Below, one piece after another: positions 24,591 to 41,028 of a DNA stretch of 64,000 nt. The number at the start of each line of letters is the position of its first letter. Positions within the stretch are counted from its first letter, which is position 1. This DNA is from a virus, in IMG/VR virus record IMGVR_UViG_3300037483_001012, positions 32,001-96,000 of that record. One strand, 5' to 3'. The notes beneath the pieces are model-generated. The model saw only the letters and a program-made list of their open reading frames with translations. It had not been told where the DNA came from and ran no database searches. Position numbers and translations under genes: made by a program.

Positions 24591-24685
24591 TGGCGCGCCA
24601 CGTCCTGCGCCTCTACATGGGGCGCAGTGCGGGGCACGTACCCCGTGATCGGAATGGACCGGTCATCATATGAGGAACCTAAGCC

Positions 24686-24898
24686 ATGGCTACCCTTGAC
24701 CTGCACCCCGGCGCGTACACGTCGCGCAAAGGATTCCGCCCTGTCATCCGCACCTATCGCGATGGCGTCCCGCATGGCTCTAAGGCGTCCGGCTTCCTGT
24801 TCGCCACCAGGGCCGAAGCGGAATCACATGCGCGCATTGCTGCGCTCAATGTGGCTCTGAACTACAACGGCGCGTCCCTTCACGTCGCTGTGCACTAG
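24686..24898 (+). CDS. hypothetical protein
   Basis: Hairpin + RBS. Confidence 0.7.
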   Translation: MATLDLHPGAYTSRKGFRPVIRTYRDGVPHGSKASGFLFATRAEAESHARIAALNVALNYNGASLHVAVH

Positions 24899-24908
24899 GG
24901 CGCGCGCC

Positions 24909-25022
24909 ATGGTCCGCACCATCATCCGTGAGGCCGCCTTTGTCGGGACCTGCCTTGTCGTCGGCACGGTCCTAAGCGGGGTGGGCTTATTGGCTTACCT
25001 GCTGGTGGATTGGCGATTCTAG
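24909..25022 (+). CDS. 37-aa membrane peptide
   Basis: Read manually: MVRTIIREAAFVGTCLVVGTVLSGVGLLAYLLVDWRF; weak RBS. Confidence 0.45.
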   Translation: MVRTIIREAAFVGTCLVVGTVLSGVGLLAYLLVDWRF

Positions 25023-25121
25023 GCGTGCATCGCGTCCTGCCGTCTCGTCACGGGGCGGCAGTGCAGGGTGCAGCTACCCTCCCCGCTGGAATCGACCGCC
25101 GGGGCAAATCGAGGAAAAGAC

Positions 25122-25724
25122 ATGCCACAAGGCCGCGTTGAGAAAGTTGATTTTACCTCTGGCGGTGCCGGGAACCAATGGACCACGATTGACGGCGTGA
25201 GGTACGCCACATGGTGGGGTATCAAGACGAAGAATTGGCGCACGGGCGATCTGGTGACATTCGAAGTTTACAGCGCCCCGCTTTGGAGTGGCATGACGCC
25301 AATCGCTTGCGCCAAAAATATCAGCAAGGCCGAAAGCCAAAATATCATCCGCGCCAAGTTGATCGAGGCCCGCGCTCTTATTGCAGACCGTTCTAACTGG
25401 TGCATGGGAATGCACGCCAGCGACCGCGACGGAAATGCCGTCTATCACAATGAACCGAACGCCAAATGCTTTTGCGCCGATGGCGCGCTAGGCAAGGTCT
25501 GTGGCGTCGAAATAAGCCCCGCCGGGGATTGGCAAAACAACCCTCTCTATAATTCGGTACGAAGCGTCGTCTGGGATGCAGCAACCCGCGAATTCGGCAA
25601 AAGCCATGTTTGCGTCAATGATGGTGAGCACCTGCCGGACGACTTCGATGACGATTCCGTTGTCGCCCGCTCACACCGCGATATTCTAACCGTTTTTGAC
25701 AAGGCGATTGAGGCAATCGCCTAG
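25122..25724 (+). CDS. hypothetical protein (two-domain)
   Basis: Hairpin + RBS; C-terminal ARALI..WC.G..CFCADGAL phage domain. Confidence 0.7.
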   Translation: MPQGRVEKVDFTSGGAGNQWTTIDGVRYATWWGIKTKNWRTGDLVTFEVYSAPLWSGMTPIACAKNISKAESQNIIRAKLIEARALIADRSNWCMGMHASDRDGNAVYHNEPNAKCFCADGALGKVCGVEISPAGDWQNNPLYNSVRSVVWDAATREFGKSHVCVNDGEHLPDDFDDDSVVARSHRDILTVFDKAIEAIA

Positions 25725-25955
25725 CGCGCGCCGCGACGTGCGCCGGGTCCGCCCGGCGCATATCAGGGCGCGGCTACGTCTGGCCTAAGCCTCAGTGCGG
25801 CGCTACCAGTGGGTAGCGTGCGGCACGGGCGACGATGCAGGGGCAAACCGGACCGGGCGGGATTCCCGGAATGGACTCCCTGATGACGGGCAGGCAATCC
25901 CGCCGCGACAACCCTACCGCCCGGAATGGTCCGGGCGGGACATGAGGAACGAACT

Positions 25956-26084
25956 ATGAAACCCGCGATATTGCCCAATCCTTTCGACGATCTCGCCGCG
26001 CCGGCCAAGCGCAAGGCCAAGCGAAGGAAGCCCGCCCGCAAGCCGGCGACGCGCCGCAAGGTGGCCACACGCCGCAAGCGATAG
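25956..26084 (+). CDS. 42-aa highly basic protein
   Basis: Read manually: MKPAILPNPFDDLAAPAKRKAKRRKPARKPATRRKVATRRKR; hairpin + RBS. Confidence 0.7.
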   Translation: MKPAILPNPFDDLAAPAKRKAKRRKPARKPATRRKVATRRKR

Positions 26085-26192
26085 GCGCGCGCCGCGTTGT
26101 GCAGCTCGTCGACAGACGGGCTGCATAGCAGGGCGCGGCCTAGGCCAGCTCTACCGTTCGGAATAGTCCGGACGGGTATCGAGGATCGTAAC

Positions 26193-26375
26193 ATGCTCTA
26201 TGCAAACGTCCGCGTTGCGCGCGCCGCAACCGGCCTCTGGTCCGCCTTCGGGTCATGGGTCGGCGGCTCCTTTCATGTGCTTGGCTGCCTGTCGGATACC
26301 GAGGCCCGCGCCTTCGCGCGTGGCCGGTGCCTGGCCATCGGACGCGCGCCCCGCTACATCGGGGGTTCGCGATGA
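26193..26375 (+). CDS. hypothetical protein
   Basis: Hairpin + RBS. Confidence 0.65.
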   Translation: MLYANVRVARAATGLWSAFGSWVGGSFHVLGCLSDTEARAFARGRCLAIGRAPRYIGGSR

Positions 26376-26461
26376 AACGCAAACCCATCGCCTATGTCCG
26401 GCGCCGCACCCGAAAATTCGTGCGGACCGACAAGCGCGCGTTTCTGGAGTCGTGCCAATGA
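26372..26461 (+). CDS. 29-aa basic peptide
   Basis: ATGA overlaps on both sides. Confidence 0.45.
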   Translation: MKRKPIAYVRRRTRKFVRTDKRAFLESCQ

Positions 26462-26535
26462 TTAGCACCCCCGAGGCCATCGCCCTTGTCGTCCTGGCGC
26501 TTGTCTTGCTATGGCAGGCGTTCAGGCCAGCGTGA
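26458..26535 (+). CDS. 25-aa membrane peptide
   Basis: ATGA overlap; MISTPEAIALVVLALVLLWQAFRPA. Confidence 0.45.
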   Translation: MISTPEAIALVVLALVLLWQAFRPA

Positions 26536-26624
26536 CGTTGCGAAGCGGGGCGGCAGGTTCGCCCCGTCACGGAACGCCAAGCCGTCCCTTGCTGGAATTG
26601 TCCGGCACGAATTGAGGAATCGAT

Positions 26625-27533
26625 ATGAACATGATGGTAGGCCCGGAAGCCATGACGGCGGCCGCTCTTTCGTCCCGCGCAATGCTGGCGCGCCTGAAAA
26701 TCTGCACTTGGTCGGCGACCAAACTTGACCGCAAGGTAACCGACAAGGTGAATACGGAACACCATGCCGCGCATGACGCCGGGCGCTATAACAAGCGCCT
26801 GCTTTCCAAAAGCGCAACGGCGGTCTTGACGCGGGTTTGCAGCGAGGCGCGCGCCGCGCACTACGCCCGCACCCTGCCCTGGCAGGATGACGGCGTGCGC
26901 ATTCTTTCGGCCGCCGCGTATATGGAATACGCGGAAAAAATGGCCGGGCTGCGCTCTCAATTCGATGCGGCGGCCGACTCCTTCGCGATAGGCTATGCCG
27001 AATTCGTGATTGATGAACGCGCGCGGCTTAACGGCATGTTCAATGCCGACGACTACCCGCCGGCGGAGATCATCCGCAACCGCTTTACCTTTGACGTGAA
27101 AATCGATGTGATGCCGGACGCGTCCGACTTCCGGGTCGACTTGGGCGAGGCGCAAGCGGCGGAGATCCGCGCCGATATCGAGGCGCGGACCAAACAAGCC
27201 TTGGCCGACGCGATGCGCGACGTATGGGAACGCGTTGCGGAAAGCGTTGGCCACATGGCGGACCGGCTGAAAAACTACCGCCCGGCGGAAACCAAAGGCG
27301 ACAAGTCGCAAGGCATTTTCCGCGATTCGCTGGTGGAGAATATCCGCGATCTCGTCGCCGTGCTGCCCGGCCTCAACGTCACGGGCGACCCGCGGCTTGC
27401 CGCCGTCGCGGACCGCCTGCCCGCGTTGTGCCGCGACGACGCGGCGACGTTGCGCGACGACGCCACGGCGCGCGCCAGCGTGGCGGCGGAAGCCGACGCG
27501 ATCTTAAAAGACGTATCGGAATATCTGGCCTAA
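26625..27533 (+). CDS. DUF3150-like protein
   Basis: WSATKLD, TLPWQDDGVRIL, FNADDYP, IFRDSL, LNVTGDP; typical partner of MoxR/VWA genes. Confidence 0.65.
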   Translation: MNMMVGPEAMTAAALSSRAMLARLKICTWSATKLDRKVTDKVNTEHHAAHDAGRYNKRLLSKSATAVLTRVCSEARAAHYARTLPWQDDGVRILSAAAYMEYAEKMAGLRSQFDAAADSFAIGYAEFVIDERARLNGMFNADDYPPAEIIRNRFTFDVKIDVMPDASDFRVDLGEAQAAEIRADIEARTKQALADAMRDVWERVAESVGHMADRLKNYRPAETKGDKSQGIFRDSLVENIRDLVAVLPGLNVTGDPRLAAVADRLPALCRDDAATLRDDATARASVAAEADAILKDVSEYLA

Positions 27534-27629
27534 GTGCATTCCGGCTAGGCGCGGCGGTAACGCCGCGCCCTTCCCGAGCGCATAACGCCCGCCGCGCGGA
27601 ATGGCCCGCACGGATTTGAGGAAACCGCT

Positions 27630-28643
27630 ATGAACCTGATTCAAGCATCCGCCGCACTCAATGCCTACATGGCGGCAAACGTGCCAACGTTCCTTTGGGG
27701 CGCGCCCGGCATCGGCAAGTCCGATCTGACGCGCGACGTGGCTAAGGCGAACGATATGCCGCTAATCGACGTGCGCGCAATCTTGCTCGATCCCGTCGAC
27801 CTTCGCGGGCTGCCCACCGTGACCGATGGCCGCGCGACCTGGGCGCAACCGGATTTCTTGCCGCGCGCGGACCGGGACGGCCCTAAGGGCATTCTGTTGC
27901 TTGATGAATTGAACGCCGCGCCCGCGTCGGTGCAAGCCGCACTTTTCCAACTGATTCTTGACCGCAAGCTAGGCGAATACACCTTGCCGCCGGACTGGCG
28001 CATTGTCGCGGCCGGTAACCGCCAAAGCGATCGCGCGGCGGCGCAGCGAATGCCGTCCGCCCTGGCCAATCGCTTCGCGCATATCGACGTTGACGCCGAC
28101 GTGACCGCCTGGGGCAAATGGGCGGCGGCGAACAATATCGCGCCGATGGTGCTGGCGTTCATCCGTTTTCGTCCCGCCCTGCTGCACGCCATGGAAGGAA
28201 GCGATTTGCGCGCGTTCCCGACACCGCGCGCATGGGCAACCGTTGCCCGACTCCCGCAAGTCCAGACAGTCGGCACGGCGGACCGGGACGCGGACGCGTT
28301 CCGGCTGGCCCTGGTCGGCGGCGTCGTCGGCGAAGCGGCGGCGGCGGAACTGGAAGGCTTTATACGGGTCTGGCGATCCCTGCCGACAATCGCGGATATC
28401 ATCGCGGACCCGGACGGCGTGACCGTGCCGAACGATCCGGCCACGCTCTACGCGGTTTCAACCGCGCTGGCGCGCAAGGCGGACCGCAAGACCTTTGAAC
28501 CGATCTTGCGCTTTGCCCGGCGCGCCATGGGGCAGGAATTCGGAATCCTGCTTTGCGTCGACGCGATCACGCGCGACCCGGACCTTAAAACGACGCGCGC
28601 ATTCGTTGAATGGGCGTCCGACAATCAGGACGTAACGCTATGA
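27630..28643 (+). CDS. MoxR-type AAA+ ATPase
   Basis: GAPGIGKS Walker A, LLLDE Walker B, AAGN, ALANRF, FPTPRAW. Confidence 0.9.
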   Translation: MNLIQASAALNAYMAANVPTFLWGAPGIGKSDLTRDVAKANDMPLIDVRAILLDPVDLRGLPTVTDGRATWAQPDFLPRADRDGPKGILLLDELNAAPASVQAALFQLILDRKLGEYTLPPDWRIVAAGNRQSDRAAAQRMPSALANRFAHIDVDADVTAWGKWAAANNIAPMVLAFIRFRPALLHAMEGSDLRAFPTPRAWATVARLPQVQTVGTADRDADAFRLALVGGVVGEAAAAELEGFIRVWRSLPTIADIIADPDGVTVPNDPATLYAVSTALARKADRKTFEPILRFARRAMGQEFGILLCVDAITRDPDLKTTRAFVEWASDNQDVTL

Positions 28644-29803
28644 GCCTGCCCCACAAGTTCACGCGCGCCCGCGCCGCGCTGGTCATGCGTCAGCCGTTTT
28701 TCGGAACGCTAGCGCTGCACCTCCGGGCCGAAATGACACCCGAATTTGACACGATGGCAACCGATGGCGTCCGGCTGCTGGTCAATCCGGATTTCTTGGA
28801 AACGCTTTCCGCCTCTGAGGCGGAAGGCGTGATAGCGCACGAAGTTCTACATTGTGCGTCAAAACACCATACGCGGCGCAAAGGCCGTGACGCCAAGCGC
28901 TGGAACATCGCTACGGACCTGGCGATAAACCGCGATCTGATCGCGGCCGGCTTCAAACTACCGGCCGGGGCTCTGATCGATCCCAAGTATGGCGACCTTG
29001 GCGCGGAAGCGATCTACCGCCTGTTAGAGCAAGAAGAGCAAGCCGGCGGCGGTCAATCGCAACCCGCGCCGGGACAATCCGGCGGGACCGATCCGGGCGG
29101 GTGCGGCGAAATTCTCGACGCCGCGCCAGAACACGATACGGCGGCCGTCTCGGCGGCGGAGGCAGAATGGGATACGATCACGCGGCAAGCCGTCAACGTG
29201 GCCAAGGCCCGCAACGCCGGGCAGGTCCCCGGCAATCTGGCGCGCCTTGTGGAAACCATGAACGCGCCGCGCGTCGACTGGCGCGGCGTGCTGCGCCGCT
29301 TTGTCGACGAGTCTACGTCCCGCGACTTTTCATGGATGCGACCTAACCGCCGCCACCTGTACGCGGGCCGGATCATGCCGGGCTACGTCCCGGACCGGCC
29401 GTCCCATGTCGTGGCAATGATTGACACGTCCGGGTCAATTCAGCCGGCGGACCTGGCCGCGTTCCGAACTGAGATACAGGCCGCGCTTGACGACGGCGCG
29501 GCGGACCGGGTGACCGTGGCCTATGCCGATACGGTGGTGCATGCGCATGACGAATTCGCCGCCGGGGATCTCGTTCGCATGGAAGCCAAGGGCGGCGGCG
29601 GCACGTCGTTTGCGCAGCCGTTGGCATGGGTTGCCGAGAACGTGCCGGACGTTTCGGCGGTCCTCTATATGACCGATTGCCAAGTGACCGAATGGGGCGA
29701 CCCGCCCGCGCCCGTGCTTTGGGTTGTGACCGGCGACCCGCGCACGGCGGCGCGGTGCGCAGCGCGCGCGCCGTTCGGGGAGGTAATCATTTTGGCGGAC
29801 TAG
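28640..29803 (+). CDS. metallopeptidase + VWA domain protein (DUF2201-like)
   Basis: TMATDG, HEVLH (HExxH), WNIATDLAIN, MIDAS DTSGS, GGGT, TD. Confidence 0.88.
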   Translation: MSLPHKFTRARAALVMRQPFFGTLALHLRAEMTPEFDTMATDGVRLLVNPDFLETLSASEAEGVIAHEVLHCASKHHTRRKGRDAKRWNIATDLAINRDLIAAGFKLPAGALIDPKYGDLGAEAIYRLLEQEEQAGGGQSQPAPGQSGGTDPGGCGEILDAAPEHDTAAVSAAEAEWDTITRQAVNVAKARNAGQVPGNLARLVETMNAPRVDWRGVLRRFVDESTSRDFSWMRPNRRHLYAGRIMPGYVPDRPSHVVAMIDTSGSIQPADLAAFRTEIQAALDDGAADRVTVAYADTVVHAHDEFAAGDLVRMEAKGGGGTSFAQPLAWVAENVPDVSAVLYMTDCQVTEWGDPPAPVLWVVTGDPRTAARCAARAPFGEVIILAD

Positions 29804-29876
29804 CGAACATCGAGGACGCGCCGCGCGCGCCCTCTCTCTCGTGCGGAATAGTCCGCACGTCATTGGAGGATATGGA

Positions 29877-30392
29877 ATGCTTACAAAGCATGAACTGCGC
29901 CGCGCCATGGGCGAAGCATATGGCGCTTGGTACTGGCGCACGCCGGGCCGCTTCGCACACAAGGCCGGACCGGACGGGAAAGCCGAGCGGGTCGCCTATA
30001 TCCTAAAATATCGGGCGCGTCGCGCGGAACTAAGCGCCGGGACGTTCCGGCCGGAAGTAAACGCGCGCGGCAACGTCGTTTTGCGCGATCATGATGCAGA
30101 CCGCGCGTTGCGCTTGCGCAATGCCGGCGACCGCTACGCATACGATTTTGGTCCGTGCCGGGCCTGGATTCAATTCGATACCCGACAAGATGCCATCTAC
30201 TTTGGCGTATGGGTGAACCCAGACAATCGCCAAATATTCACCTACTGCGAAGGCGACCGGATTCTAGTTACATGCCCGACGCCCGAGTCATTCCGCACCG
30301 AGTTGATCGACGCAAAAGAATTCTACGGCGCGCCGATTCCGCCACCGCTGCAAGATTTACTCGCCGATCTGGAGTCGGCCACCTGTAACTAA
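29877..30392 (+). CDS. hypothetical protein
   Basis: Hairpin + RBS; WIQFDT.QDA.YFGVWVNP motif. Confidence 0.7.
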   Translation: MLTKHELRRAMGEAYGAWYWRTPGRFAHKAGPDGKAERVAYILKYRARRAELSAGTFRPEVNARGNVVLRDHDADRALRLRNAGDRYAYDFGPCRAWIQFDTRQDAIYFGVWVNPDNRQIFTYCEGDRILVTCPTPESFRTELIDAKEFYGAPIPPPLQDLLADLESATCN

Positions 30393-30486
30393 TCGCGCGC
30401 GTCGCGGTTTGCCGCGCCATGCGCGCGGCATTCCAGGGCGCGGCCCTATGCCGGGAATGGTCCCGGCGTTCAAATGAGGAAAGCAC

Positions 30487-30879
30487 ATGCCCGATATCTC
30501 AAAGCTTGTATCAGAACTGCGCCTTGGCGACCAAGTTGATTTGGAAGGCGACAAATTTGCGGACCCGCGCCTCGACAAGCCCGCGCTCCAAAGTGAATAC
30601 CAACGCGTCGTCAGCGTTGAACGGGAAAGTACCAATTGCATCGCTGTCGCCTTCGAGGGATTCGACTTAATCGGATTCCCGCCGGACCACCGCGTTAAGG
30701 TAGCGCCATGCCAGACAACAAAAATCAGCGTTCCGAGAGCCATGAGCGCGACGCAAGCCGATCTCGCCGCGTCATTGGCCTGCTACACGTCCGACGATGA
30801 TTGGGGCGATGACCGGCGTGCGTTCCTGCAATCTGTCAGTGATCGAATCCTCTTGGATTTGATGACTGGCGAATACTAG
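30487..30879 (+). CDS. hypothetical protein
   Basis: Hairpin + RBS. Confidence 0.7.
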   Translation: MPDISKLVSELRLGDQVDLEGDKFADPRLDKPALQSEYQRVVSVERESTNCIAVAFEGFDLIGFPPDHRVKVAPCQTTKISVPRAMSATQADLAASLACYTSDDDWGDDRRAFLQSVSDRILLDLMTGEY

Positions 30880-31004
30880 GCGGCTCGCGCCTACTCCATA
30901 AATCGTCACTCTCCTAATCGTCCGCCATAATATTTACGCAATTATAGCGGATGGTGCCAAGATCAATTCGGTTTGGAATAGTCCGGACCACATATGAGGA
31001 ACAC

Positions 31005-31241
31005 ATGTCACACAAACCCGACTTTGACATCATCGATACCGGATCGCTGGCGCTATTCACGCCAATGACGGAACGGGCAATCGATCATGCCGAGCAACAT
31101 CTTGCCGACGCCATGACGCACGGCCTCAGCTACGTTGTGGAGCGCCGCTACGCCCTCGATATCGTCAACGACCTGATGAACGAGCATGGCTTTACCGTCA
31201 TGATCGACGGTCGCGAACTGGCGTCCATCTCGCCCGTCTAG
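31005..31241 (+). CDS. hypothetical protein
   Basis: Hairpin + RBS. Confidence 0.72.
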   Translation: MSHKPDFDIIDTGSLALFTPMTERAIDHAEQHLADAMTHGLSYVVERRYALDIVNDLMNEHGFTVMIDGRELASISPV

Positions 31242-31283
31242 CTTTCACGTTCGGAATGGTCCGAACAGCGCATGAGGAAACCA

Positions 31284-31877
31284 ATGGCAACCACATTTGT
31301 TCTCGATCTTTCCCATCCCGAGCATGGCACCCAAGAAACTCAGGTGACCATCGCTGCCGATGGCGGCTTCCATATGCATTATGAGGACGATATCGCGCCG
31401 CAGGCGCGTAAGAATGTCGCCTCTCGCTTTGTCGATTACGAAAGCTTCGGTTCAGGTTCCGCCTATGCGGATCGTCTCGAAGAGGTCGGCGACGTATTCA
31501 AGATCACCGGCATAGCATTCGTGGACGTGCCGGCACGGCCCGACATTCGCTTCGCGGTGCGCGGCAACTACTCCACCGATGAACAGGGCGATTGGTCCGA
31601 CTGGATCATGGCGAGCGATAAAGAGCGCGCCGAATTTCTGGCGCGGTGGACGATGGCGGAGAACGAACGCGCCGACCCGTCCAGCGAACATGACTTCCAA
31701 ATCACCATGGAAGAGATCGAGATCAAGGAATGCTACCCGGAGCCGTTCACCAAAGACGAACTGGCAAAATTCGTGGGAACGATTGCGCGGATGATCCCGA
31801 CCGAGGACGGGGACGATTCAATCGCAACCGTCAATCGTTTGATCGAGGACGCCCGCAAGCTTCTCGGGGTCGTGTAA
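31284..31877 (+). CDS. acidic hypothetical protein
   Basis: Hairpin + RBS; D/E-rich. Confidence 0.72.
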   Translation: MATTFVLDLSHPEHGTQETQVTIAADGGFHMHYEDDIAPQARKNVASRFVDYESFGSGSAYADRLEEVGDVFKITGIAFVDVPARPDIRFAVRGNYSTDEQGDWSDWIMASDKERAEFLARWTMAENERADPSSEHDFQITMEEIEIKECYPEPFTKDELAKFVGTIARMIPTEDGDDSIATVNRLIEDARKLLGVV

Positions 31878-31912
31878 CCCGCGCGGAATAGCCCGCGCAC
31901 GTATAGGAGATC

Positions 31913-32080
31913 ATGAAAATGCGCAAGCTGCCGAAGGACGTTATCGCTGCGCTCAAATGGTCGGCGCGTAGCGTACACCATCCGGCCTGTCCAATCGCGC
32001 GCGGGAAAGATATTGAGACAATCACTCACAACCCGTGCACCTGTCATGTGAAGGCGGCCAAGGACGCCCTGGCAAAGTAG
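31913..32080 (+). CDS. 55-aa His/Cys protein
   Basis: Read manually: H.P.CP...CTCH; hairpin + AGGAG. Confidence 0.62.
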   Translation: MKMRKLPKDVIAALKWSARSVHHPACPIARGKDIETITHNPCTCHVKAAKDALAK

Positions 32081-32129
32081 AGACTGAGACCGCAAGTGGA
32101 ATGGTCCGCGCGCAATGGAGGAAATATTG

Positions 32130-32312
32130 ATGGCAAAAGCCAAGCTGGAAATCCGCATTTGGACCGATGATGACAAAGAGCTTCCTGACGATTTGCCGGA
32201 AGCCTTTGCTCCGCACATGGAGCATGTCGGGAAAATGGCCGAAGAAGGTTGTTTTGCCGGCGAAATCTGCGACGAGAATTTTAGGGGTTGGTGGGAAATC
32301 GTCACGGGCTAG
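32130..32312 (+). CDS. 60-aa acidic protein
   Basis: Hairpin + GGAGG; D/E-rich, ends FRGWWEIVTG. Confidence 0.7.
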   Translation: MAKAKLEIRIWTDDDKELPDDLPEAFAPHMEHVGKMAEEGCFAGEICDENFRGWWEIVTG

Positions 32313-32357
32313 TCAAATCACTAGCGCGGAATAGTCCGCACGCAAAAGGAGGACGGC

Positions 32358-32537
32358 ATGACAATGAAATCAAGCCCTCTCTTTGACCGATGCGTCGCGA
32401 TCATCGTCTGGTCGACGATCATCCTCTGGCTTATTTTCGCGCGCTACCACTCCTTCCGGAGCGCCCGGAAGGCCCGACGCCTGCTCTTGAATCGTCAGGC
32501 GCGCAAGCGCCACAACATGGAGACAGTATCACAATGA
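32358..32537 (+). CDS. 59-aa membrane protein
   Basis: Read manually; hairpin + AGGAGG; one TM helix then basic tail; ATGA overlap. Confidence 0.62.
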   Translation: MTMKSSPLFDRCVAIIVWSTIILWLIFARYHSFRSARKARRLLLNRQARKRHNMETVSQ

Positions 32538-33592
32538 GCCAAGTCATGGTCCTGGCCGGCGACACCGCCGCGCCGTGCTCTTGCGAGAATTGCGGCTGGA
32601 AAGGCACGGCCGCCGCCCTCGAAATGATTTCTGATTTCGAGGATCGCGTATCAGCCGGCGAAACCGTTCCGGCCGGGCAATGCCCGGAATGTGGCGCGCT
32701 TGCGCACCTTGATACGGCCCCCGCTTGGAGCGCCGACGCGCTTTTGTCGCGCGCCAATGATCTGTTCCGTGAAGCGGTTGACGCATGGCCGCAATTCGAC
32801 GGCGACGATGCGGTGAGCGGAGCGGACCTGGTCGAATGGTTCGCGGAGTGGCGCGGGCGCGTGAAGGCGCAACTCGGCGGTGCCATAGCTTCGCCTCTCG
32901 TAACGCAACCGACCTTCGGAGCGGTCACCGTGGCGACCTTCACGCACAAGCACGGCGTCGACACGCGCGTTTTTGCCACCGCCGATGCTGCCGAACTTTG
33001 GCGGCAAGAGATCGCTAAGGAATATTGGCGCGACTTCATGAATGAAGACGCCCCGACCGATCCCGTTGCCATGGCTGATCGCTATTTCGAGCGCGGCAAC
33101 GAGTTGGGGGATGAGTTTTTCGCGGCGGAACAATGCCCCGTTGAAGGACCATCGCCTTCTCTCGACAGCCAATTGGCAATCGATGCGCGCGCCCTGCTGA
33201 TCGAGATCGACGCCGCGCGCGGCAAACCGATTGACGGCGGCACCGTGCTGGACCCGCTGCACCCGATCTGCGCTTTCGCGGAGCATCTATCCGAAACGCT
33301 TAAGGGCGTGCCGGCCAACGAGCAATCGCGCCCGATCCTTGCCGTTATCTGCGACGGCGGCCTGGTGCAAGGCCTCGTATCAACGCGGCCGGCCGTCTTC
33401 GGCGATGTTCTGGTCATCGATTACGACACCGAAGGTGCGGGCGGCAAAGACGTGATGGACGTCAACCAGGGCGATGGCACCTATGCCGAGGCGTGCGTAT
33501 CGCTGCGATCTGTCGAGGCCGCCGCGATTGATCTGCCGCAGGTCATCTTGGATTTGGTCCGACAATCGTCCGAAGATTCCGTCGCGCCTTAA
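32534..33592 (+). CDS. multi-domain hypothetical protein with zinc ribbon
   Basis: CENC...CPECGAL; GGLVQ..VIDYDTEG. Confidence 0.7.
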   Translation: MSQVMVLAGDTAAPCSCENCGWKGTAAALEMISDFEDRVSAGETVPAGQCPECGALAHLDTAPAWSADALLSRANDLFREAVDAWPQFDGDDAVSGADLVEWFAEWRGRVKAQLGGAIASPLVTQPTFGAVTVATFTHKHGVDTRVFATADAAELWRQEIAKEYWRDFMNEDAPTDPVAMADRYFERGNELGDEFFAAEQCPVEGPSPSLDSQLAIDARALLIEIDAARGKPIDGGTVLDPLHPICAFAEHLSETLKGVPANEQSRPILAVICDGGLVQGLVSTRPAVFGDVLVIDYDTEGAGGKDVMDVNQGDGTYAEACVSLRSVEAAAIDLPQVILDLVRQSSEDSVAP

Positions 33593-33663
33593 ATTCCGCC
33601 GCAATCGTCAACTACCGTTTTCAAATTCTGGAATAGTCCGGAACAAACATGAGGAAAAAACCA

Positions 33664-34989
33664 ATGAACGCAATGACACCCGCTTTCTCCCCCGCGCGCC
33701 CGGCCAGCGATGCCGAGTCCGCGGCAATCGCCGCCTCGATGGTCCCGGCAAAGCCGGACCCGATTCCAGCCTCCCACACTCTCACCGCTCACGCGCGGCT
33801 GGACGGCCCGTCACTGACTGCCGCGATCAACGCGTGCATCCGCATTGTCGAGAAACGCAACGCCGCTCCGATGTTCGCCAACGTCATGCTTACCGCCAGC
33901 GCCGGCGGCGTGACCATGGAAGGGACCGACGGCGACATTGTCATTACGGTGCCGATCAACGGCACGGCTGACGCCAATTTTGCCACGACGATCCCCGCCC
34001 ATATGTTGCGCGACGTTCTGCGCAAGGCCAAGGGCTGCGAAATGGTCACTGTTGACCTGACCGAAAAGACCACGTACCGCGCGCCGTACGGCTATGAGAA
34101 GACCCTCGACCCGGTCCCGACGGTCGATAACCGCAATTCGCTGCGCATGGGTCGCTTCAAGGTTACGTTGAATGGCCTGCCGGCGGCCGACTTCCCCAAG
34201 CTCAAACCGGAATCTCGGCAATTCAGCCACAAGTTCACCATGCCGGCGGCCGATCTGGCGCGCGCACTTTCCAAGGTCGAATTCTGCATCTCGACTGAGG
34301 AAACGCGCTACTACTTGAACGGCATCTACATGCACGTCCCTCACCATTCGAAAGCAAGGCCGGCGACGCTGTGCTTTGCCGCGACGGATGGCCATCGCAT
34401 GGGCGTCGCCGACATCCCGGCGCCGGATGGCGTCTTTGGTATGCCCGGCGTCATCGTGCCGGCCAAGGCCGTGGCTGAATTCATCCGACTGTGTTCTGCC
34501 AAACCGGTTGCCGAGCATTATGTCACCATCTCTGTTTCGCCAGCGCGGGTACAACTCCAGGCCGGCGACGTGACGGTGAACTCCTACGTTATCGATGGCA
34601 CCTACCCGGACTACGGCCGCGTCGTCCCGTCCGGCAATGACAAGCTGGCGCGCGTCGATATCGCCGACCTGATCGACGCGGTCGACAAGGTTTGCGTCAT
34701 CTCGTCGGAGCGCGGCCGTACGGTCAAGCTCGCCTTCACGGCTGGCAACTGCTTGCTGACCGTGGTCAACCCGGATACCGGCGCTGCGACCCTGCCGATC
34801 GATCTGGAATATTCCAGCAACCCCATGGATATCGGCTTCAACTCCAGATATCTGACTTCCATCCTGGAGATGTTCGACGGCGACGTGGTCGAAATGCTGA
34901 TGGCCGATCCCGGCTCGCCGACACTCTTCACCGGTCGCGACACCAAGGACTCCGGGGTACGGTACGTGCTCATGCCAATGCGGGTGTAG
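33664..34989 (+). CDS. dnaN: DNA polymerase III beta sliding clamp homolog
   Basis: STEETRYYLNG, ATDGHR, IDGTYPDY, IGFNSRY, YVLMPMRV. Confidence 0.93.
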   Translation: MNAMTPAFSPARPASDAESAAIAASMVPAKPDPIPASHTLTAHARLDGPSLTAAINACIRIVEKRNAAPMFANVMLTASAGGVTMEGTDGDIVITVPINGTADANFATTIPAHMLRDVLRKAKGCEMVTVDLTEKTTYRAPYGYEKTLDPVPTVDNRNSLRMGRFKVTLNGLPAADFPKLKPESRQFSHKFTMPAADLARALSKVEFCISTEETRYYLNGIYMHVPHHSKARPATLCFAATDGHRMGVADIPAPDGVFGMPGVIVPAKAVAEFIRLCSAKPVAEHYVTISVSPARVQLQAGDVTVNSYVIDGTYPDYGRVVPSGNDKLARVDIADLIDAVDKVCVISSERGRTVKLAFTAGNCLLTVVNPDTGAATLPIDLEYSSNPMDIGFNSRYLTSILEMFDGDVVEMLMADPGSPTLFTGRDTKDSGVRYVLMPMRV

Positions 34990-35078
34990 CACGCGCATGC
35001 CTACGCGGCGGGGCGCGTTGTCCCGCCGCAGCTACCAGCGCCAGGAATGGTCCTGACGCCAGATATGGGAGCCGCGAT

Positions 35079-35498
35079 GTGACCACAGCCCTTTCATTTT
35101 TGTTCGAAAAATACGCGAACCTACAGCCGGAAGACCCACACTGGATTTGCGACGGGGCCGATGACGAGTCGGCGGACTACTGCCGGAAATGCGCCTTGGC
35201 CAAAATCAAGAAGGACGGCAAAGGCGAACTGAACATGTCGGTCGCGCCCGAAAGCGATAGCTGTAGCCACTGCGAGCAATGCGGCAAGTTGCTCGACTAT
35301 TGCCTCACGAACTCAGGCGCCGACGCGGAGCTAGATCACTTCCGTAAGGTCAAATTCCGGCGCGGCAAACCGCTCGACCGGCAAACCGCATACCATTTGG
35401 CCAGGATGCTTGCGGCCAAGGGGGGCGACTTTGAGGCGACCGAGATTGCTGCGCGCGCTATCCGCTGCATGAAGTCGATCCCAAATATCTCGCATTAA
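35079..35498 (+). CDS. hypothetical zinc-binding protein
   Basis: Hairpin + GGAG, GTG start; CRKC, CEQC. Confidence 0.62.
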   Translation: MTTALSFLFEKYANLQPEDPHWICDGADDESADYCRKCALAKIKKDGKGELNMSVAPESDSCSHCEQCGKLLDYCLTNSGADAELDHFRKVKFRRGKPLDRQTAYHLARMLAAKGGDFEATEIAARAIRCMKSIPNISH

Positions 35499-35553
35499 AC
35501 ACGCAACGGCTCACCGCCAGGAATTGTCCCGGCGAAATAGGAGGAACTACCGA

Positions 35554-35913
35554 ATGACCGCAGGTCCCGCAATCTCATTCCGCTCCCTCAACGGTAAATA
35601 CGTCGGCGTCTATGCTTTGCCCGGCGATCAACGCTGGCGGACCGTAGGCGCCAACGGCAAGGACAGCCTGTTCGACACCGCGCGCGAGGCCGAGGCTATC
35701 GCCGGCCACGTCCTATGTGCCAAGATTCATCAATCGCCAGCCGTTCTCCAAGAGCCGCACCGGCAGGAACTGCATGCCCTGCTCAATGACCTGGTCGACT
35801 GGCATGCCATGATGGGCGGATTCGAGGCCCCGGTGTGGGGGCGCGTCGAGAAAATGCGGGAGCGCGTGGCGGCGCCGCCGGCCAGGCCCCGCCTTGTCGC
35901 GGGAGGGCGGTGA
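35554..35913 (+). CDS. hypothetical protein
   Basis: Hairpin + AGGAGG. Confidence 0.68.
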   Translation: MTAGPAISFRSLNGKYVGVYALPGDQRWRTVGANGKDSLFDTAREAEAIAGHVLCAKIHQSPAVLQEPHRQELHALLNDLVDWHAMMGGFEAPVWGRVEKMRERVAAPPARPRLVAGGR

Positions 35914-35914
35914 T

Positions 35915-36166
35915 ATGGCATCCATCGCAATCATCGCACCAGACGGCAACAGCGTTGTCGGCCTATCGCACGAACGCTTGTCGGCTCGCGCCTTAAATCG
36001 CATGGCCGCACGAGTCGGTAATCTCATGGCTGTGCCTGGCATCCGCTATGACAATTCAGTGTGCAGGGGCCTGAACTGGCCACTGCGCTTCCAACTGGTG
36101 ACCGTAATTATCAATGGCCGCTGGCGTACATTCGATCCAGACTATCTGCCGGCCGAGTTTTGGTAA
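35915..36166 (+). CDS. hypothetical protein
   Basis: GGAGG RBS. Confidence 0.55.
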   Translation: MASIAIIAPDGNSVVGLSHERLSARALNRMAARVGNLMAVPGIRYDNSVCRGLNWPLRFQLVTVIINGRWRTFDPDYLPAEFW

Positions 36167-36189
36167 AAAATAATCAGGAGGGCAATGCG

Positions 36190-36507
36190 ATGAACGACCA
36201 CAATGCTAGCGCCGCATCCAATGAATGGCCGGTCCGCCGCTTCCTCGATCTCTCCACCGCGCACCTGCGCCCCGAAACGCGCTCGCTCTGGATGGAATGC
36301 TTCTGCGCAAAAAGCTTCCCTGGCACGGTTCTGATCGGCGAGCACGGCTGGATGCTGCACGTCCCGGAACGCAACACGGATTGGGACTACCGGTGCGGCG
36401 CGGAACTGTTCGCCATCTTCGACAAGGCCCGCTCGCTCAGTTGTGACTACGTGCTGTTCGACGCTGACGGCAGCATGATCGATGGTCTTCCAGTCTTCAA
36501 CGATTGA
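36190..36507 (+). CDS. DUF5983-like protein
   Basis: RRFLDLSTAHL, GWMLHVP, CDYVLFDADG. Confidence 0.65.
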   Translation: MNDHNASAASNEWPVRRFLDLSTAHLRPETRSLWMECFCAKSFPGTVLIGEHGWMLHVPERNTDWDYRCGAELFAIFDKARSLSCDYVLFDADGSMIDGLPVFND

Positions 36508-36553
36508 TTGACCTCAACGAAAACCGCCGACATCAACCAAGAAGGAGATTCCC

Positions 36554-36889
36554 ATGATTGCCTACTGCTACGCGTCCGGTCTGATCCAATTCGGCCGCAA
36601 GACACCCGACGGCGCCATAGCGATCGCGGCCGGCCCGGCGAAGCCGTTGCGCGATCTGATCGACGCCCGCGCTCGCCACGGCTACGAGACCAGGAAGGTC
36701 AAGGGGCGGCCGACGAAGATCCCCGGTACCGAATGCCTGCTGGTGCCCGGCGTTCCCGAGGCGCCAGACCAGGAAGCCGGCGGCGACGCGCTGGGCGCGT
36801 TCTGCAAGTGGATCGGCGAGAAGCCGCCGAAAGGCATAACGGTATTCGGCATGCGTCCGAGCCGCCGGCCTGGCCGCAAGGCCGCCTGA
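36554..36889 (+). CDS. protein of a family often labelled host nuclease inhibitor
   Basis: AYCYASGLIQFG, ARHGY, LLVPGVPEA; label recalled, not verified. Confidence 0.55.
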   Translation: MIAYCYASGLIQFGRKTPDGAIAIAAGPAKPLRDLIDARARHGYETRKVKGRPTKIPGTECLLVPGVPEAPDQEAGGDALGAFCKWIGEKPPKGITVFGMRPSRRPGRKAA

Positions 36890-36926
36890 GTAACACCAGA
36901 TGACCGAACATAGTCAGGAACCGAAC

Positions 36927-37301
36927 ATGGGCAAAAAAACAATCCAAACCTTGCTTGACCTGCTTAATCCGCTACACGGCGCGCTCGATAAGCGGACGAT
37001 GGATTTGCGGGAAGAAAACTACCCCGCCGATTTCTGCCGCGACGACGAGATTGATGTGATCGTTACGCGGGGGATGGAGCGCGATCTGACGCAAGCAGTC
37101 TCTATCCTCGAAAACCGTCTCACCACGGCGGACGACCTGATTGATACGGTCGAGGCAATGCAGTCCTTCATTGGCATCATGTTCGGGCAAGGCCCAGACG
37201 CCATCATTCCCGAAACGGTCAATGCACCCATCGGCATCCCGATCAAGGTCGGTGACCTCATGCGCTCAGTTTCCGCCATTGTCGCGCGGGCCAAAGCGTA
37301 A
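36927..37301 (+). CDS. hypothetical protein
   Basis: AGGA RBS; operon orientation. Confidence 0.55.
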   Translation: MGKKTIQTLLDLLNPLHGALDKRTMDLREENYPADFCRDDEIDVIVTRGMERDLTQAVSILENRLTTADDLIDTVEAMQSFIGIMFGQGPDAIIPETVNAPIGIPIKVGDLMRSVSAIVARAKA

Positions 37302-37341
37302 TTCGCACATAACCCGCAACCGATTGGCACAGGAGAGACCG

Positions 37342-37488
37342 ATGGCCAAGAACACCTACCCGAAGACCGACCGCATCCGCGAACTCCGTGAACAGAAATG
37401 GGAGCGCGACCAAGCCGCGTTGCGGGCGACCGCGTCCAGCCCCAGGCCGGCCGTGAAGCCGGCGCGCCGCAAGCGGGCGAAGAAGTAA
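37342..37488 (+). CDS. 48-aa basic protein
   Basis: AGGAG RBS; MAKNTYPKTDRIRELRE...RRKRAKK. Confidence 0.55.
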   Translation: MAKNTYPKTDRIRELREQKWERDQAALRATASSPRPAVKPARRKRAKK

Positions 37489-37496
37489 CCACGATC

Positions 37497-37922
37497 ATGG
37501 CCGCTTCCGTCTCCGAGATCTCCGACATGTTCGCCCGCGCCAGCTTGTCTATGGCTGCTGCCGAGATCAAGGCCCTGACGAAAGAGGAGATGATCGACTC
37601 TTATATTCTCGCAATCGGCATACATCTTAAGCGCGCCGAACGACTGATAACGCTCGCCTCGCGCCTCAACGCGTCGTCGCGCCTCCCCCGTCGGGCAATC
37701 GCCATCACCGCGATTAACCAAGCGAGCAAACGGGTGATAGCGGCTGAAACTTGCGACGTCCTATTGAGGGCCGTTGACGCGACAAAAGGCGCCCTGCCCT
37801 GGTCGGACGATCCGTACTCGCCGAACATCAAAGACAAGATCGCTATTATTCAGGGTTTCTTGAATGCGCCACCAGCAAGAAAGCCGCGGGCGCGTGACAT
37901 GGACGACGAGATTCCATTCTGA
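37497..37922 (+). CDS. hypothetical protein with SSB-like acidic tail
   Basis: Ends DMDDEIPF. Confidence 0.6.
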   Translation: MAASVSEISDMFARASLSMAAAEIKALTKEEMIDSYILAIGIHLKRAERLITLASRLNASSRLPRRAIAITAINQASKRVIAAETCDVLLRAVDATKGALPWSDDPYSPNIKDKIAIIQGFLNAPPARKPRARDMDDEIPF

Positions 37923-37968
37923 TATCCACGACCCGTCCGGAATCGACCGAACGACATAGGAGGAAGCA

Positions 37969-39300
37969 CTGAACACACATTTCCAACCCGGCGCCTTGGC
38001 GCTCCAGCGCCGTCTCTCCGACGTGGTCGCAGAGTACGATCAAAAACGGGTTGCGCTCGACCAGGCCTTGGTCGATTTCAACACCGCCGGCGAGGCGCTC
38101 AAGATGGCCGCCACCATCGGCGGCACCTATGGCGACACGAACATAGAAACCGGCCACGTGTATGAGCGCGAGCTATCCACCAGCCTCTTGCGATCGGCAT
38201 GGAAACATGTCTACGCCGGACTCAACATCGCTGTTCTCGCCAGCCCGAAGGATAAGCGGCGGTTTGAACAATCGCTGACAGACCCTGCACCCTTCACAAT
38301 CGACAACATCCGGGCGAGCTTTGGCACTTACATCCTCGACCCGCGCGCGGCTATCTTGCGCTCCATGGCCGAAGTGTTCTGCGATCTGGACCCATTCTAC
38401 CGCAGTCACGAGAAGATGAAGGTCGGCGTTAAGGGCCTGCCGAAGCGCGTAATTCTCAATTACATGGGCGACTACAGCAGCCACGGCAGGGAGAAGGTCG
38501 AGGCGATCATCAATGCGATGGCGGCGTTCGAGGGAAAGCCGCTGGTGACGTGGCGCGAAATTAGCGCGCTGCTCAAAGACGAACGCGCCCTGGTCGAAGA
38601 CGGAGACCTCCCCGCTGATCGCACTTGGGACGAGCCTGTCAAGGTCATCGGTCGAGGCATCCGCCTGCGCCGGTTTGGCAACGGCAATGGCCACTTGTTC
38701 TTTGAGCCGGCGGCGCTGCGCACGATCAACCTCGCATTGTCAGAATACTATGGTGAGATCCTGCCTGACTGCGCCGATGACGCGCCCGACGCGCCGCGAG
38801 CGTCAACCGCCGTCGCCAAGGACCTTCAATATTACCCAACACCGGCGAAGGTTGCCGCCGACGTGGTGACCGAGGCCTACGTCAAGAAAGGCGACCTGGC
38901 GCTTGACCCTTCCTGCGGTTGCGGTCGCCTGCTCGACGCGGCGCGTGCTGCCGGCGCCAAGGTGGTTGGCATTGAGGTTGATCCGCTCCGCGCCGCCGAG
39001 GCCATGCGTAAAGGCCACCGCGTCATGGTGGCCAACTTCCTCGATACCGTTCCGACGCCGACCTATGACGTCGTGCTGATGAACCCGCCGTTCTACGGCA
39101 AACACTACGTCAAGCACGTAGAGCACGCCCTCAAATTCCTAAAGTCTGGCGGCAGGCTGATCGCAATCCTGCCGTCGACCGCACGCTATGACCATGGGTT
39201 GGTGGATGGCAGTTGGCGCGACTTGCCGGTCGGCTCATTCAGCGAGAGCGGCACGAATGTGAACACCAGCGTTCTGACGATCCACAACAGGGAACGGTGA
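37969..39300 (+). CDS. DUF4942-domain DNA amino-methyltransferase
   Basis: RRFGNGNGHL, QYYPTP, LDPSCGCG, MNPPF, FSESGT; probable CTG start after AGGAGG. Confidence 0.82.
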   Translation: MNTHFQPGALALQRRLSDVVAEYDQKRVALDQALVDFNTAGEALKMAATIGGTYGDTNIETGHVYERELSTSLLRSAWKHVYAGLNIAVLASPKDKRRFEQSLTDPAPFTIDNIRASFGTYILDPRAAILRSMAEVFCDLDPFYRSHEKMKVGVKGLPKRVILNYMGDYSSHGREKVEAIINAMAAFEGKPLVTWREISALLKDERALVEDGDLPADRTWDEPVKVIGRGIRLRRFGNGNGHLFFEPAALRTINLALSEYYGEILPDCADDAPDAPRASTAVAKDLQYYPTPAKVAADVVTEAYVKKGDLALDPSCGCGRLLDAARAAGAKVVGIEVDPLRAAEAMRKGHRVMVANFLDTVPTPTYDVVLMNPPFYGKHYVKHVEHALKFLKSGGRLIAILPSTARYDHGLVDGSWRDLPVGSFSESGTNVNTSVLTIHNRER

Positions 39301-39303
39301 GTA

Positions 39304-39630
39304 ATGGACCTTCCCAAAAACGTCGGCATCGTCATGCCCTTCATCGACTCGGCGATGGAGGAGTTACGCTGTGTCGACAAAGGCAATCACTCAATCGCCG
39401 TGGTAGTCTCTACAGTCAGAGAAGCCATCAAGCAACTGGTGGCGGCGCAGACGCTGATTAAATTCTTCAACAGCGAACTAACCGACGCCACCATCGATGA
39501 TGTCTGCAACGATCTCCACACCGGCTATGCCGTGGTTAACGGCCGGATGTTTCGAGTGGCCAGCCCATCGTTTTCGCATGGCCACAACTCCATCGAGATC
39601 AAGCTTACGCTGCTGTCAAAGGGGACATAA
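39304..39630 (+). CDS. hypothetical protein
   Basis: Tightly packed in operon. Confidence 0.55.
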   Translation: MDLPKNVGIVMPFIDSAMEELRCVDKGNHSIAVVVSTVREAIKQLVAAQTLIKFFNSELTDATIDDVCNDLHTGYAVVNGRMFRVASPSFSHGHNSIEIKLTLLSKGT

Positions 39631-39633
39631 AGC

Positions 39634-40236
39634 ATGCTAGACAATTTCCTGTCCCTATCTCGCCCGGAGGATTTCGTGGCCACGACGACTGCCGATCTGC
39701 GCGCCGCGCGCATGCTGCTGGGCCTGTCCCGCGTTGAAATGGGTCAACTCCTTGGCGTTGACGCCAAGGAAGTCCAACTTCTCGAGCGCGGGCGAACCCA
39801 CTTCGTTTTTCGCGGCCATGCCGCCATGCTTGAGGCCATGCTCGAACAGGTCAACACCCTGCTGCTGGAGCACACCGGCGACGCCGTGCCGGCGCCAGAA
39901 TTCCTGTTCTGCTACCCGAACAACGAGGTGTTCGAGGAAATGGAGCCGGCTCTCTCCAAGTGGATGCGCTTCAATTCGGTGCATCAGATGTTTATGACGC
40001 GCGTCATGGACGACTGGATGCAGCGCGACCACCGCCCTGTCATCGTCGAGATCGTTCCGAAGCAATACCAGGAATTCATCGCCGTTCGTGGCGGCAAGGA
40101 CACGATAGGCCAGCGCACCGCCTGGGCGATGGAGCACCTGAAGGTCATCAAGTATCGGCCTGGCCTGCCGCGTCAGGACTACGAGGGCAAGATCAAATTC
40201 GAAGCCACAGACGACCAAGGAGGAGAACGAGAATGA
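39634..40236 (+). CDS. HTH protein, Aca2/YdiL (DUF1870)-like
   Basis: DLRAARMLLGLSRVEMGQLLGV..VQLLERG HTH followed by LFCYPNNEVF...HQ segment; similarity judged by eye. Confidence 0.55.
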   Translation: MLDNFLSLSRPEDFVATTTADLRAARMLLGLSRVEMGQLLGVDAKEVQLLERGRTHFVFRGHAAMLEAMLEQVNTLLLEHTGDAVPAPEFLFCYPNNEVFEEMEPALSKWMRFNSVHQMFMTRVMDDWMQRDHRPVIVEIVPKQYQEFIAVRGGKDTIGQRTAWAMEHLKVIKYRPGLPRQDYEGKIKFEATDDQGGERE

Positions 40237-40688
40237 CACCCTGGATACTGATCGGATTTTTTGCCTTGGTCGGGGCCATCATGCTCTACCATCACTGGCC
40301 GCGCTCCGGGGCGGCGCTATTTCACCATCGCTATCGCGATTTTGACGCGCGGTGCCGCGCCCGCGGACTCAGTCATGCACAACAGACTGAGGAATTCTTA
40401 TTCCGCAACGCTTGGGCGAAGCTACGCCGGCGCAGCTCGGCCATCGTTCTCGCGTCGCCGTCCGATCCGAACAAGGCGATCGCCAAGATCGCGGCCGAAG
40501 AGGCTGAATTGCTGGCGGTGGTCAACAAGCAGGTCGCCAAGAAATTCATCGGCGTCGTAAACGAGGCCGGCCTGTACGAGATCCTTTATCCAGACGCCTA
40601 TGAAGCCGTCGAGGCCTGGGGAAAAACCAACATCCCGGTCGCGGAGATCACCGACGACAATATCGCGGCGTTGAAGACTGAGGCCTAG
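40233..40688 (+). CDS. membrane-anchored hypothetical protein
   Basis: AGGAGG RBS; N-terminal TM helix. Confidence 0.6.
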   Translation: MTPWILIGFFALVGAIMLYHHWPRSGAALFHHRYRDFDARCRARGLSHAQQTEEFLFRNAWAKLRRRSSAIVLASPSDPNKAIAKIAAEEAELLAVVNKQVAKKFIGVVNEAGLYEILYPDAYEAVEAWGKTNIPVAEITDDNIAALKTEA

Positions 40689-40716
40689 ATCGAATCTCTG
40701 CCGTGGTTTTTCGTTT

Positions 40717-41028
40717 TTATCGATCTGACGGTGGTTTAGGTTGTCTGGCATCCCAAGAAGCGAGACGGCGTACCAGCCAATTAGCCATACGGTCAAGCGT
40801 CCAATCAACTAAGCGATCGAACAACCGATACAGCGCGGTACCCATGAACGCGCGTTTAAATTGGCGCATGGCGAGTTCACGTTCGGCATTATAAGCTATT
40901 GATGTCCCACGAAACAGACGAACCCTGTCGCGCAAATCGTCATCCGATGCCGGGAGTAGTAGGTCGGCAGGCACCCAACGCCCATCGATTAGGAAAAGGT
41001 GGCCTTCGGCGCGGTATGGATATTTCAT
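40717..41028 (-). CDS. hypothetical protein
   Basis: GAGG RBS; last gene of replication operon. Confidence 0.45.
   Translation of the reverse strand: MKYPYRAEGHLFLIDGRWVPADLLLPASDDDLRDRVRLFRGTSIAYNAERELAMRQFKRAFMGTALYRLFDRLVDWTLDRMANWLVRRLASWDARQPKPPSDR

Follow-up and report, generated by a model that had tools for sequence, protein, structure and literature searches.

An Aca2/YdiL-superfamily protein encoded near the distal end of a hairpin-tagged phage operon as a candidate feedback regulator

The 64,000-nt stretch of viral DNA analysed here (the window, comprising bases 32001–96000 of the 112.7-kb IMG/VR record IMGVR_UViG_3300037483_001012, which has a completeness rating of 94%) encodes, as the penultimate of about 28 co-oriented genes, a helix-turn-helix (HTH) protein that by sequence profile and modelled fold is a divergent member of the DUF4447 branch of the Aca2/YdiL superfamily, and for which an Aca2-like homodimer is predicted. 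The reading that best explains this protein, and that we consider probable, is that of an Aca-type feedback repressor. A dimeric HTH regulator would thus be made as the second-to-last product of a 16-kb early accessory operon and, having accumulated, would most likely feed back negatively on that operon in an aca-like manner. Both the repression and the target to which the regulator would bind are what we infer. As for the target, the 18 hairpins found close to ribosome binding sites (RBS) in the operon could conceivably be its operators, most naturally in RNA form though DNA might also serve, and just as conceivably the regulator could act only on DNA of the control region in front of the operon with the hairpins being read by something else, neither of which we would expect outright. 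A protein bound to a hairpin ending 17–20 nt before the start would sit inside the 30S footprint, and would for that reason be expected to block initiation.

The open reading frame of the regulator is a genuine gene. Its ATG is preceded by a ribosome site, AAGGGGA, and because two homologues (with 60% and 51% identity) have the same N-terminus, both the gene and its start can be regarded as real. The short distance from the stop codon of the preceding 108-aa gene to this start implies that the two genes are co-transcribed, and they are probably also translationally coupled. Located downstream of the cargo at the distal end of the operon, the regulator gene has the position typical of aca genes, with only one more gene following before a strand switch to convergent genes beyond position 40688; its description as the penultimate gene of the array in the initial annotation was hence correct. 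When the gene was compared with the phage collection using blastn and tblastn, zero matches were obtained, as was also the case when that collection was searched with P0017, and scans of viral and metagenome contigs for close relatives (queries A1 and P0004) found none. The coordinates of all features are collected in Table 1.

Identical DNA was present in several sediment metagenome runs, with contigs from four such runs matching positions 24300–40800 as identical fragments, whose joints were flanked by only 21–33 nt; the runs listed included no RNA run. The window also encodes a second XRE-type HTH protein of 142 aa (positions 61325–61750; Pfam HTH_3, 2.7e-11), a candidate phage regulator of the cI/Cro type that is unrelated to the DUF4447 branch except for its HTH.

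Table 1. Features of the operon, its control region, the hairpin array and the modelled regulator; nucleotide positions refer to the window and residue numbers to the regulator.
Feature	Position	Strand	Description
Control region	24030–24420	+	Non-coding, AT-rich, 390 nt, before the operon
Palindromes	24116–24131 and 24169–24188		In the control region
Partial hairpin-loop words (three)	24243, 24267, 24323		In the control region
TTGACA	24329		In the control region
Second hairpin	24362–24381		In the control region; abuts the first array hairpin
Array of 18 hairpins	24381–37953	+	Covarying stem of 5–9 bp, invariant GG-AAT-N-G-N-CC top
Starts of the 10-nt hairpin cores	24386, 24651, 25088, 25923, 26160, 26594, 27598, 29845, 30454, 30975, 31253, 31885, 32098, 32328, 33630, 35044, 35520, 37939	+	One per array hairpin
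Genes without a hairpin	28640, 32534, 35915, 36190, 36554, 36927, 37398, 39304, 39634, 40233
DUF4942-type DNA methyltransferase gene	37996–39300	+	Pfam; final hairpin-tagged cistron, two genes 5' of the regulator
108-aa gene	39304–39630	+	No family assigned; stop 3 nt 5' of the regulator start
Regulator gene	39634–40236	+	200-aa HTH regulator, Aca2/YdiL superfamily, DUF4447 branch (ORF, profile, fold model)
Last operon gene	40233–40688	+	151 aa, hydrophobic N-terminus, no family; start overlaps the regulator stop
HTH and long helix	Residues 17–81		AF2 model
Aca2-like beta-alpha-alpha-beta dimerisation part	Residues 90–139		AF2 model
Two-helix extension	Residues 142–169		AF2 model; common to the regulator and SO3848
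C-terminal tail	Residue 170 onward		AF2 model; low confidence

The XRE-like N-terminal HTH noted in the initial annotation is present in the protein, although only weakly seen in single-sequence searches. The Pfam match to HTH_31 (E 3e-4) was under the cut-off, hmmscan at E up to 10 returned HTH_31 and HTH_3 and nothing else, PHROG 955 was matched at 5e-6, and a search of the PDB gave designed and natural 434-repressor chains. Using an exhaustive profile search, we collected a family of about 60 full-length relatives of 155–190 aa, and the resulting family profile, when compared with the PDB, found 2OX6 (SO3848, a DUF4447 protein) with E 9e-19 over its full length (positions 11–158), followed by Aca2 (four sequences, each near 1e-7) and, at 1e-4, by YdiL. 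With Pfam, one-third of these relatives were assigned to DUF4447 (20 of 60) and 10 of the 60 to Aca2_YdiL, some being above both cut-offs, and alignment with hhalign of the close subfamily of the regulator to the Pfam-positive DUF4447 and Aca2_YdiL members gave a probability of 99.75% and E 2.4e-27 over 154 columns. The regulator itself was matched neither by the Pfam model of DUF4447 (PF14590) nor by that of Aca2_YdiL (PF08965, formerly DUF1870), and a six-frame search of the genome with the latter was empty at E up to 1.

Modelling with AF2 gave a pLDDT of 46 from a three-sequence alignment and of 90.3 from the 60-row alignment. The model agreed best with 2OX6 (Z 17.6, 154 residues, rmsd 2.1), then with five Aca2 entries (Z 12.4–12.9, having 113–118 of the 115–124 Aca2 residues placed on model residues 14–138) and with YdiL (Z 11.7), the next fold being that of Aca1 at Z 7.7; with Foldseek, the TM scores by target in the comparison with Aca2 and YdiL were 0.65–0.75. 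A structure search of the Atlas agreed with DUF4447, and its feature search returned generic HTH clusters only, under 0.9. The published Aca2 fold consists of a four-helix HTH part followed by a beta1-alpha5-alpha6-beta2 extension (PMC8633003), and the parts of the model are listed in Table 1. Residue W164 is nearly invariant among the family relatives. As both fold and profile rank 2OX6, Aca2 and YdiL far above the rest, the modelled protein is placed in the Aca2/YdiL superfamily as a divergent member of its DUF4447 branch. The resemblance of the C-terminal region to Aca2/YdiL, initially claimed by eye, is hence real at the level of profile and fold, with the Foldseek comparison also putting these proteins far above the next fold, whereas the similarity to DUF1870 that had been claimed stands as a likeness to Aca2 and YdiL in fold and profile and does not extend to a match with the Pfam model.

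We also predicted the homodimer, which reached an ipSAE of 0.88 as compared with 0.01 for the best control, with at least 65% of the contacts agreeing between runs and a partner pLDDT of at least 79. Of 30 proteins with a solved structure of one-chain pairs, 20 attained the same mark, as against 1 of 23 with a single-chain structure. In the predicted interface, helix 17–30 packs against residues 118–126 and 136–139 of the partner chain, which is the mode of the Aca2 homodimer, wherein helix 1 of one chain lies on the C-terminal extension of the other (PMC8633003); the dimer may have passed owing to likeness to the solved Aca2 dimers. Aca2 reads bases with Arg30, Tyr34 and Arg39 of its recognition helix (PMC8633003). 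In the profile alignment the first two of these correspond to K45 and L49 of the regulator and the third is kept as R54, which is invariant in its close homologues. With two of the three base-reading residues thus changed, the target cannot be predicted from that of Aca2, and a different target sequence is to be expected.

The operon that this protein would control runs from about 24400 to 40688, with some 28 co-oriented genes in 16 kb, and its cargo recognisable by Pfam comprises DUF6197, a MoxR-type ATPase with a VWA/metallopeptidase partner, a beta sliding clamp, DUF5983 and the DUF4942 methyltransferase. The 18 hairpins of the array, reported in the initial annotation as tagging 18 genes, are real. 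Their 3' ends lie 17–20 nt before a start codon and 7–9 nt before a GAGGA-type ribosome site, which is itself outside the stem. In an alignment of the window hairpins with the copies from a second phage (G001, described below), both partners vary in 7 of the 9 stem pairs, and the observed covariation score was reached by 0 of 500 shuffles. The conserved portion consists of the loop and the two uppermost pairs; the stems covary. Since the hairpins are strand-specific as well as covarying, they should act as a folded single strand. About 10 of the 28 genes are without a hairpin and all of these overlap or abut the previous gene, so that the absence of a hairpin at the regulator gene, although correctly noticed initially, does not set it apart from about nine other tightly coupled genes.

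With regard to the identity of the hairpins, Rfam gave only a sub-threshold Mu-gpT-DE match at 36462–36556, and CsrA-type GGA sites, lambda nut boxB, integron attC and N4 hairpin promoters were set aside as readings of the hairpins, because copy number, size or loop did not fit. A nineteenth perfect copy of the hairpin (a stem of 5 plus GGAATAGTCC) is found at 63856–63875, where an open reading frame encodes an Ala/Gly/Pro-rich stretch, with no ribosome site or start at the usual distance. There is also a second repeated GC-rich element, made of GCATA-CAGGGCGCGGC and GCGCGCGCCGCG words (25718–25775, 26085–26140 and 30415–30445), which follows stop codons and lies just 5' of some hairpins.

The control region in front of the operon holds several candidate DNA operators, namely the palindromes, the partial loop words and the second hairpin, proposed as such from their sequences. 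The three partial loop words fall within 87 nt, as compared with a background of 0.83 per kb; since this 87-nt span was picked after the words had been seen, their clustering is suggestive at best. A canonically spaced sigma-70 promoter could not be assigned in the region, and no clear inverted-repeat operator was found overlapping a recognisable promoter of the operon.

Close to an even prospect, in our judgment, is that the hairpins work without the regulator, serving as the site of a host factor, as a 5' stabiliser after processing, as a stand-by or spacing element for the ribosome or as a cassette recombination junction, with the HTH protein acting on DNA only. This explanation draws upon arrays found in viral genomes that lack the gene. 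In IMG/VR pattern scans, the sole viral contig besides the window to have several copies of the window loop was G001 (IMGVR_UViG_3300010938_000074; 41.8 kb, rated 100% complete), with nine hairpins of the form GGAATRG(T/G)CC on covarying 7–8-bp stems, each before a GGCGTCGGAGGA site (L053:15300–20000 and L054:1–1844), their operon being directed from the contig end inward. No family member was found in this genome, even with the HMMER filters off and at E up to 10, and the last gene of its operon encodes a 62-aa HTH_17 protein. It shares no protein with the window phage at E 1e-5, weaker matches being noise, so that the window loop occurs in two phages without a common protein, and co-occurrence of loop and regulator can be counted in just these two known genomes, one with the gene and one without. 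The proposal in the initial annotation that motif and regulator be compared across related phages accordingly turned out in part against it, in a phage that keeps the same-loop hairpins without the family, even if this phage shares no window protein. A second, analogous array is found in the 125.5-kb provirus G409 (IMGVR_UViG_2695421015_000001), having at least 20 start-linked hairpins (L135:350–20040) with the invariant loop TTCGCAG on covarying stems of 4–12 bp, nearly all before a CAAGGAGACCA ribosome site and start codon. The block includes a methyltransferase 62% identical to that of the window, and the record has no gene of the Aca2/DUF4447 type. These two genomes show that arrays of such hairpins do not need the regulator family of the window.

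That the ribosome site is not part of the stem also agrees with hairpins that work without the regulator, as does a classical promoter palindrome at one homologue (L305, in G351:C102), located between the -35 and -10 elements of the homologue's own promoter, which shows classical DNA operators to be in use within the family as well. Against it, sequence-specific recognition is suggested by stems that are free to vary below a loop that is invariant, the differences in loop from phage to phage would be unexpected for one universal host factor, and no candidate host factor was identified.

Additional searches for such arrays gave little. At 124 loci where the clamp or the methyltransferase has a homologue there were zero family members and zero GGAATNGNCC arrays, a pattern scan of genomes for the hairpin gave no arrays among the matches listed, and one locus considered as a hairpin array (L058) turned out to be noise. 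Among the cargo of the G001 operon are a gene module present in duplicate and three proteins with pentapeptide repeats. Another phage (IMGVR_UViG_3300046660_000259, L170:48–10571), with a methyltransferase 65% identical to that of the window, has seven promoter-like modules of the form TTGAC-N3-TAGGGC-N5-GCCCTAT, in which a palindrome separates the -35 from the -10-like part, and which look like a repeated promoter–operator regulon replacing the hairpins. At the L305 homologue, the stretch 5' of the family member (L305:9400–9700) contains 3.5 tandem copies of a 20-bp unit with the palindrome TTGCTGGCAA, together with repeated GGGTAT...ATACCC palindromes, and resembles the iterons or the origin of a mobile element.

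The initial annotation had proposed a master RNA-binding repressor, in which the regulator would bind all 18 mRNA hairpins and stop translation of each independently initiated cistron after an early burst. This is possible, yet we doubt it. The Aca2 fold and the predicted Aca2-like dimer, the distal position in the operon, and the strand specificity and covariation of the hairpins all agree with the proposal, as do the two adjacent hairpins of the first leader and the partial loop words of the promoter region. Furthermore, Aca2 and Aca1 are published RNA binders, and predictions include RNA motifs located between genes within a single operon (PMC13551039). Binding to hairpins is also made plausible by the fact that relatives of the regulator adjoin start-linked hairpins, as described next. 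The nine same-loop hairpins before ribosome sites in G001 and the larger analogous array in G409, both in genomes without the family, weigh against the proposal, as does the single pair of genomes known for the window loop, and it would need recognition of the loop, unlike the described mode of Aca2. What has held from the proposal is thus the fold, the operon-end position, the predicted dimer and the start-linked hairpins near relatives, but not the dependence of such arrays on the family. In its most specific form, with a DUF4447-branch relative of Aca2 serving as a timer of the 16-kb operon by binding the 18 RBS-proximal hairpins through the loop and top pairs, we regard it as rather unlikely.

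One relative with an arrangement like that of the window is bacterial (L469; G587:C166:1700–4460) and lies in a candidate Aca2-type operon of five genes for small proteins without known function, the third of which encodes an Aca2/DUF4447-type HTH protein of full DUF4447-type length (E 1.4e-35 to the family profile, and above the Aca2_YdiL cut-off). The promoter has TGTTCA-N7-TGAACA between -35 and -10. Genes 1 and 2 are each preceded by the same 23-nt hairpin, which has a 9-bp stem and the loop AUAGG and whose end lies 20 nt from the start. As in the window, the full HTH architecture is found together with an HTH gene that is coupled in the operon and without a hairpin of its own, and with a hairpin and RBS module 20 nt from the starts, which here recurs identically at two cistrons. 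The operon differs from that of the window in having only two hairpins, of identical sequence and with the pentaloop AUAGG, and a clear inverted repeat in the promoter; the BLASTP alignment of the two HTH proteins is confined to the N-terminal 71 residues, with 28% identity.

When the L469 protein was used in tblastn, an annotated HTH gene was found in 38 mycobacteriophage records, which in Catdawg is the more distantly related gp73 (positions 6–126 of the family profile, 28.8 bits), the last gene of a long operon that includes a sliding-clamp gene. The Cluster O mycobacteriophages have about 34 copies of a 17-bp repeat, TGTTCGG-N3-CCGAACA, for which a transcriptional role was judged unlikely, and the 2015 paper named three candidate DNA-binding proteins and no reader of the repeats (PMC4351075). 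In the Catdawg stretch that we examined (NC_022057.1, 40518–52889), 3 of 7 palindromes lie in short spacers and end 22–28 nt before start codons. One 17-bp palindrome is located inside gp73 itself (L471, 6252–6268). Cluster O phages (Corndog and Catdawg) resemble the window in having a long early operon with a sliding clamp, palindromes before starts and an Aca2-like HTH gene at the end. Their repeats differ from the window hairpins in having invariant arms, where those of the window covary, in having no set orientation and in lying inside genes in about a third of cases, and gp73 differs from the window protein in being without the DUF4447 extension and in its weak profile match.

Among bacteria, 1 of 401 alphaproteobacterial genomes carries the family, as does 1 of 56 genomes from the order to which G587 belongs; at E 1e-10 it was matched in 3 of 401 Pseudomonadota genomes, two of the matches being full-length and one extending over the HTH part only. 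A canonical DUF4447 gene (324 bits) in one bacterial chromosome (L470:9009–10870; G700:C1) follows a gene for a 133-aa protein in a two-gene unit without an evident hairpin, and a RelA/SpoT-domain gene (259 aa) is located just upstream, neighbours that could hint at a toxin- or immunity-linked role of the chromosomal branch. A role of the window regulator outside its own operon, upon host genes or other phage genes or as partner of a neighbouring protein in the manner of XRE-type antitoxins and immunity-linked regulators, would agree with that pairing and with the coupling of the regulator gene to two small genes without known family, but is improbable, given that the whole chain is explained by a dimer fold binding DNA or RNA, that no toxin-like neighbour was recognised near the regulator and that its position fits aca genes.

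Returning to the Aca-type feedback repressor, Aca2 is a published example of an HTH protein controlling genes through both DNA and RNA (PMC13551039). This reading is favoured by the fold, the kinship, the operon position and the predicted dimer, together with the analogues in L469, Catdawg and L305. Weighing against it are the changed base-reading residues, a promoter region with no clear inverted-repeat operator, hairpins that conserve the loop and mostly occur singly, the arrays of G001 and G409, and the L470 gene in its ordinary chromosomal pair. If the regulator were to bind the hairpins, this principle would extend to the uncharacterised DUF4447 branch, and would scale from a predicted maximum of three regulatory motifs at each Aca locus (PMC13551039) to 18 sites, forming a regulon of a whole early accessory block; this would also provide an easy marker of genes that are accessory and possibly anti-defence. 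By the same reasoning, the Aca2-like gene would be the reader that the 17-bp repeats of Cluster O have long lacked, a link that makes the puzzle from 2015 (PMC4351075) directly testable. If the regulator does not bind them, the presence of the same hairpin in unrelated phages would point to a reader on the host side.

Compared with known systems, the window protein shares with SO3848 of Shewanella oneidensis (2OX6, type of PF14590) a full-length fold and two C-terminal helices with a conserved R..WA motif, at an identity of only about 15%, and whereas the canonical DUF4447 gene seen here is chromosomal and part of a two-gene unit, the window gene belongs to a phage operon. Aca2 represses through an inverted repeat in the promoter and through RBS-proximal RNA hairpins in the 5'-UTR that block the ribosome (PMC13551039). 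It differs from the window protein in being about 60 residues shorter at the C-terminus, in having R30 and Y34, which are replaced here, and in matching PF08965. The systems also differ in their hairpins, since Aca2 has one leader with two hairpins and the window has 18 that stand singly, their loop being conserved and their stems covarying; Aca2 is described as reading the helix, whereas the window hairpins conserve the loop instead. An Aca2 dimer binds two hairpins, and the window sites are single except for the first leader, where the second hairpin directly precedes, in an operon with no known acr gene. With Aca2 of Pectobacterium phage ZF40 (7VJO, 7VJQ, 7B5J) and with YdiL (1S4K) the window protein has in common the HTH followed by a beta-alpha-alpha-beta dimerisation part, and with ZF40 Aca2 it further shares the predicted dimer surfaces, the distal location in an accessory operon and hairpins that adjoin ribosome sites.
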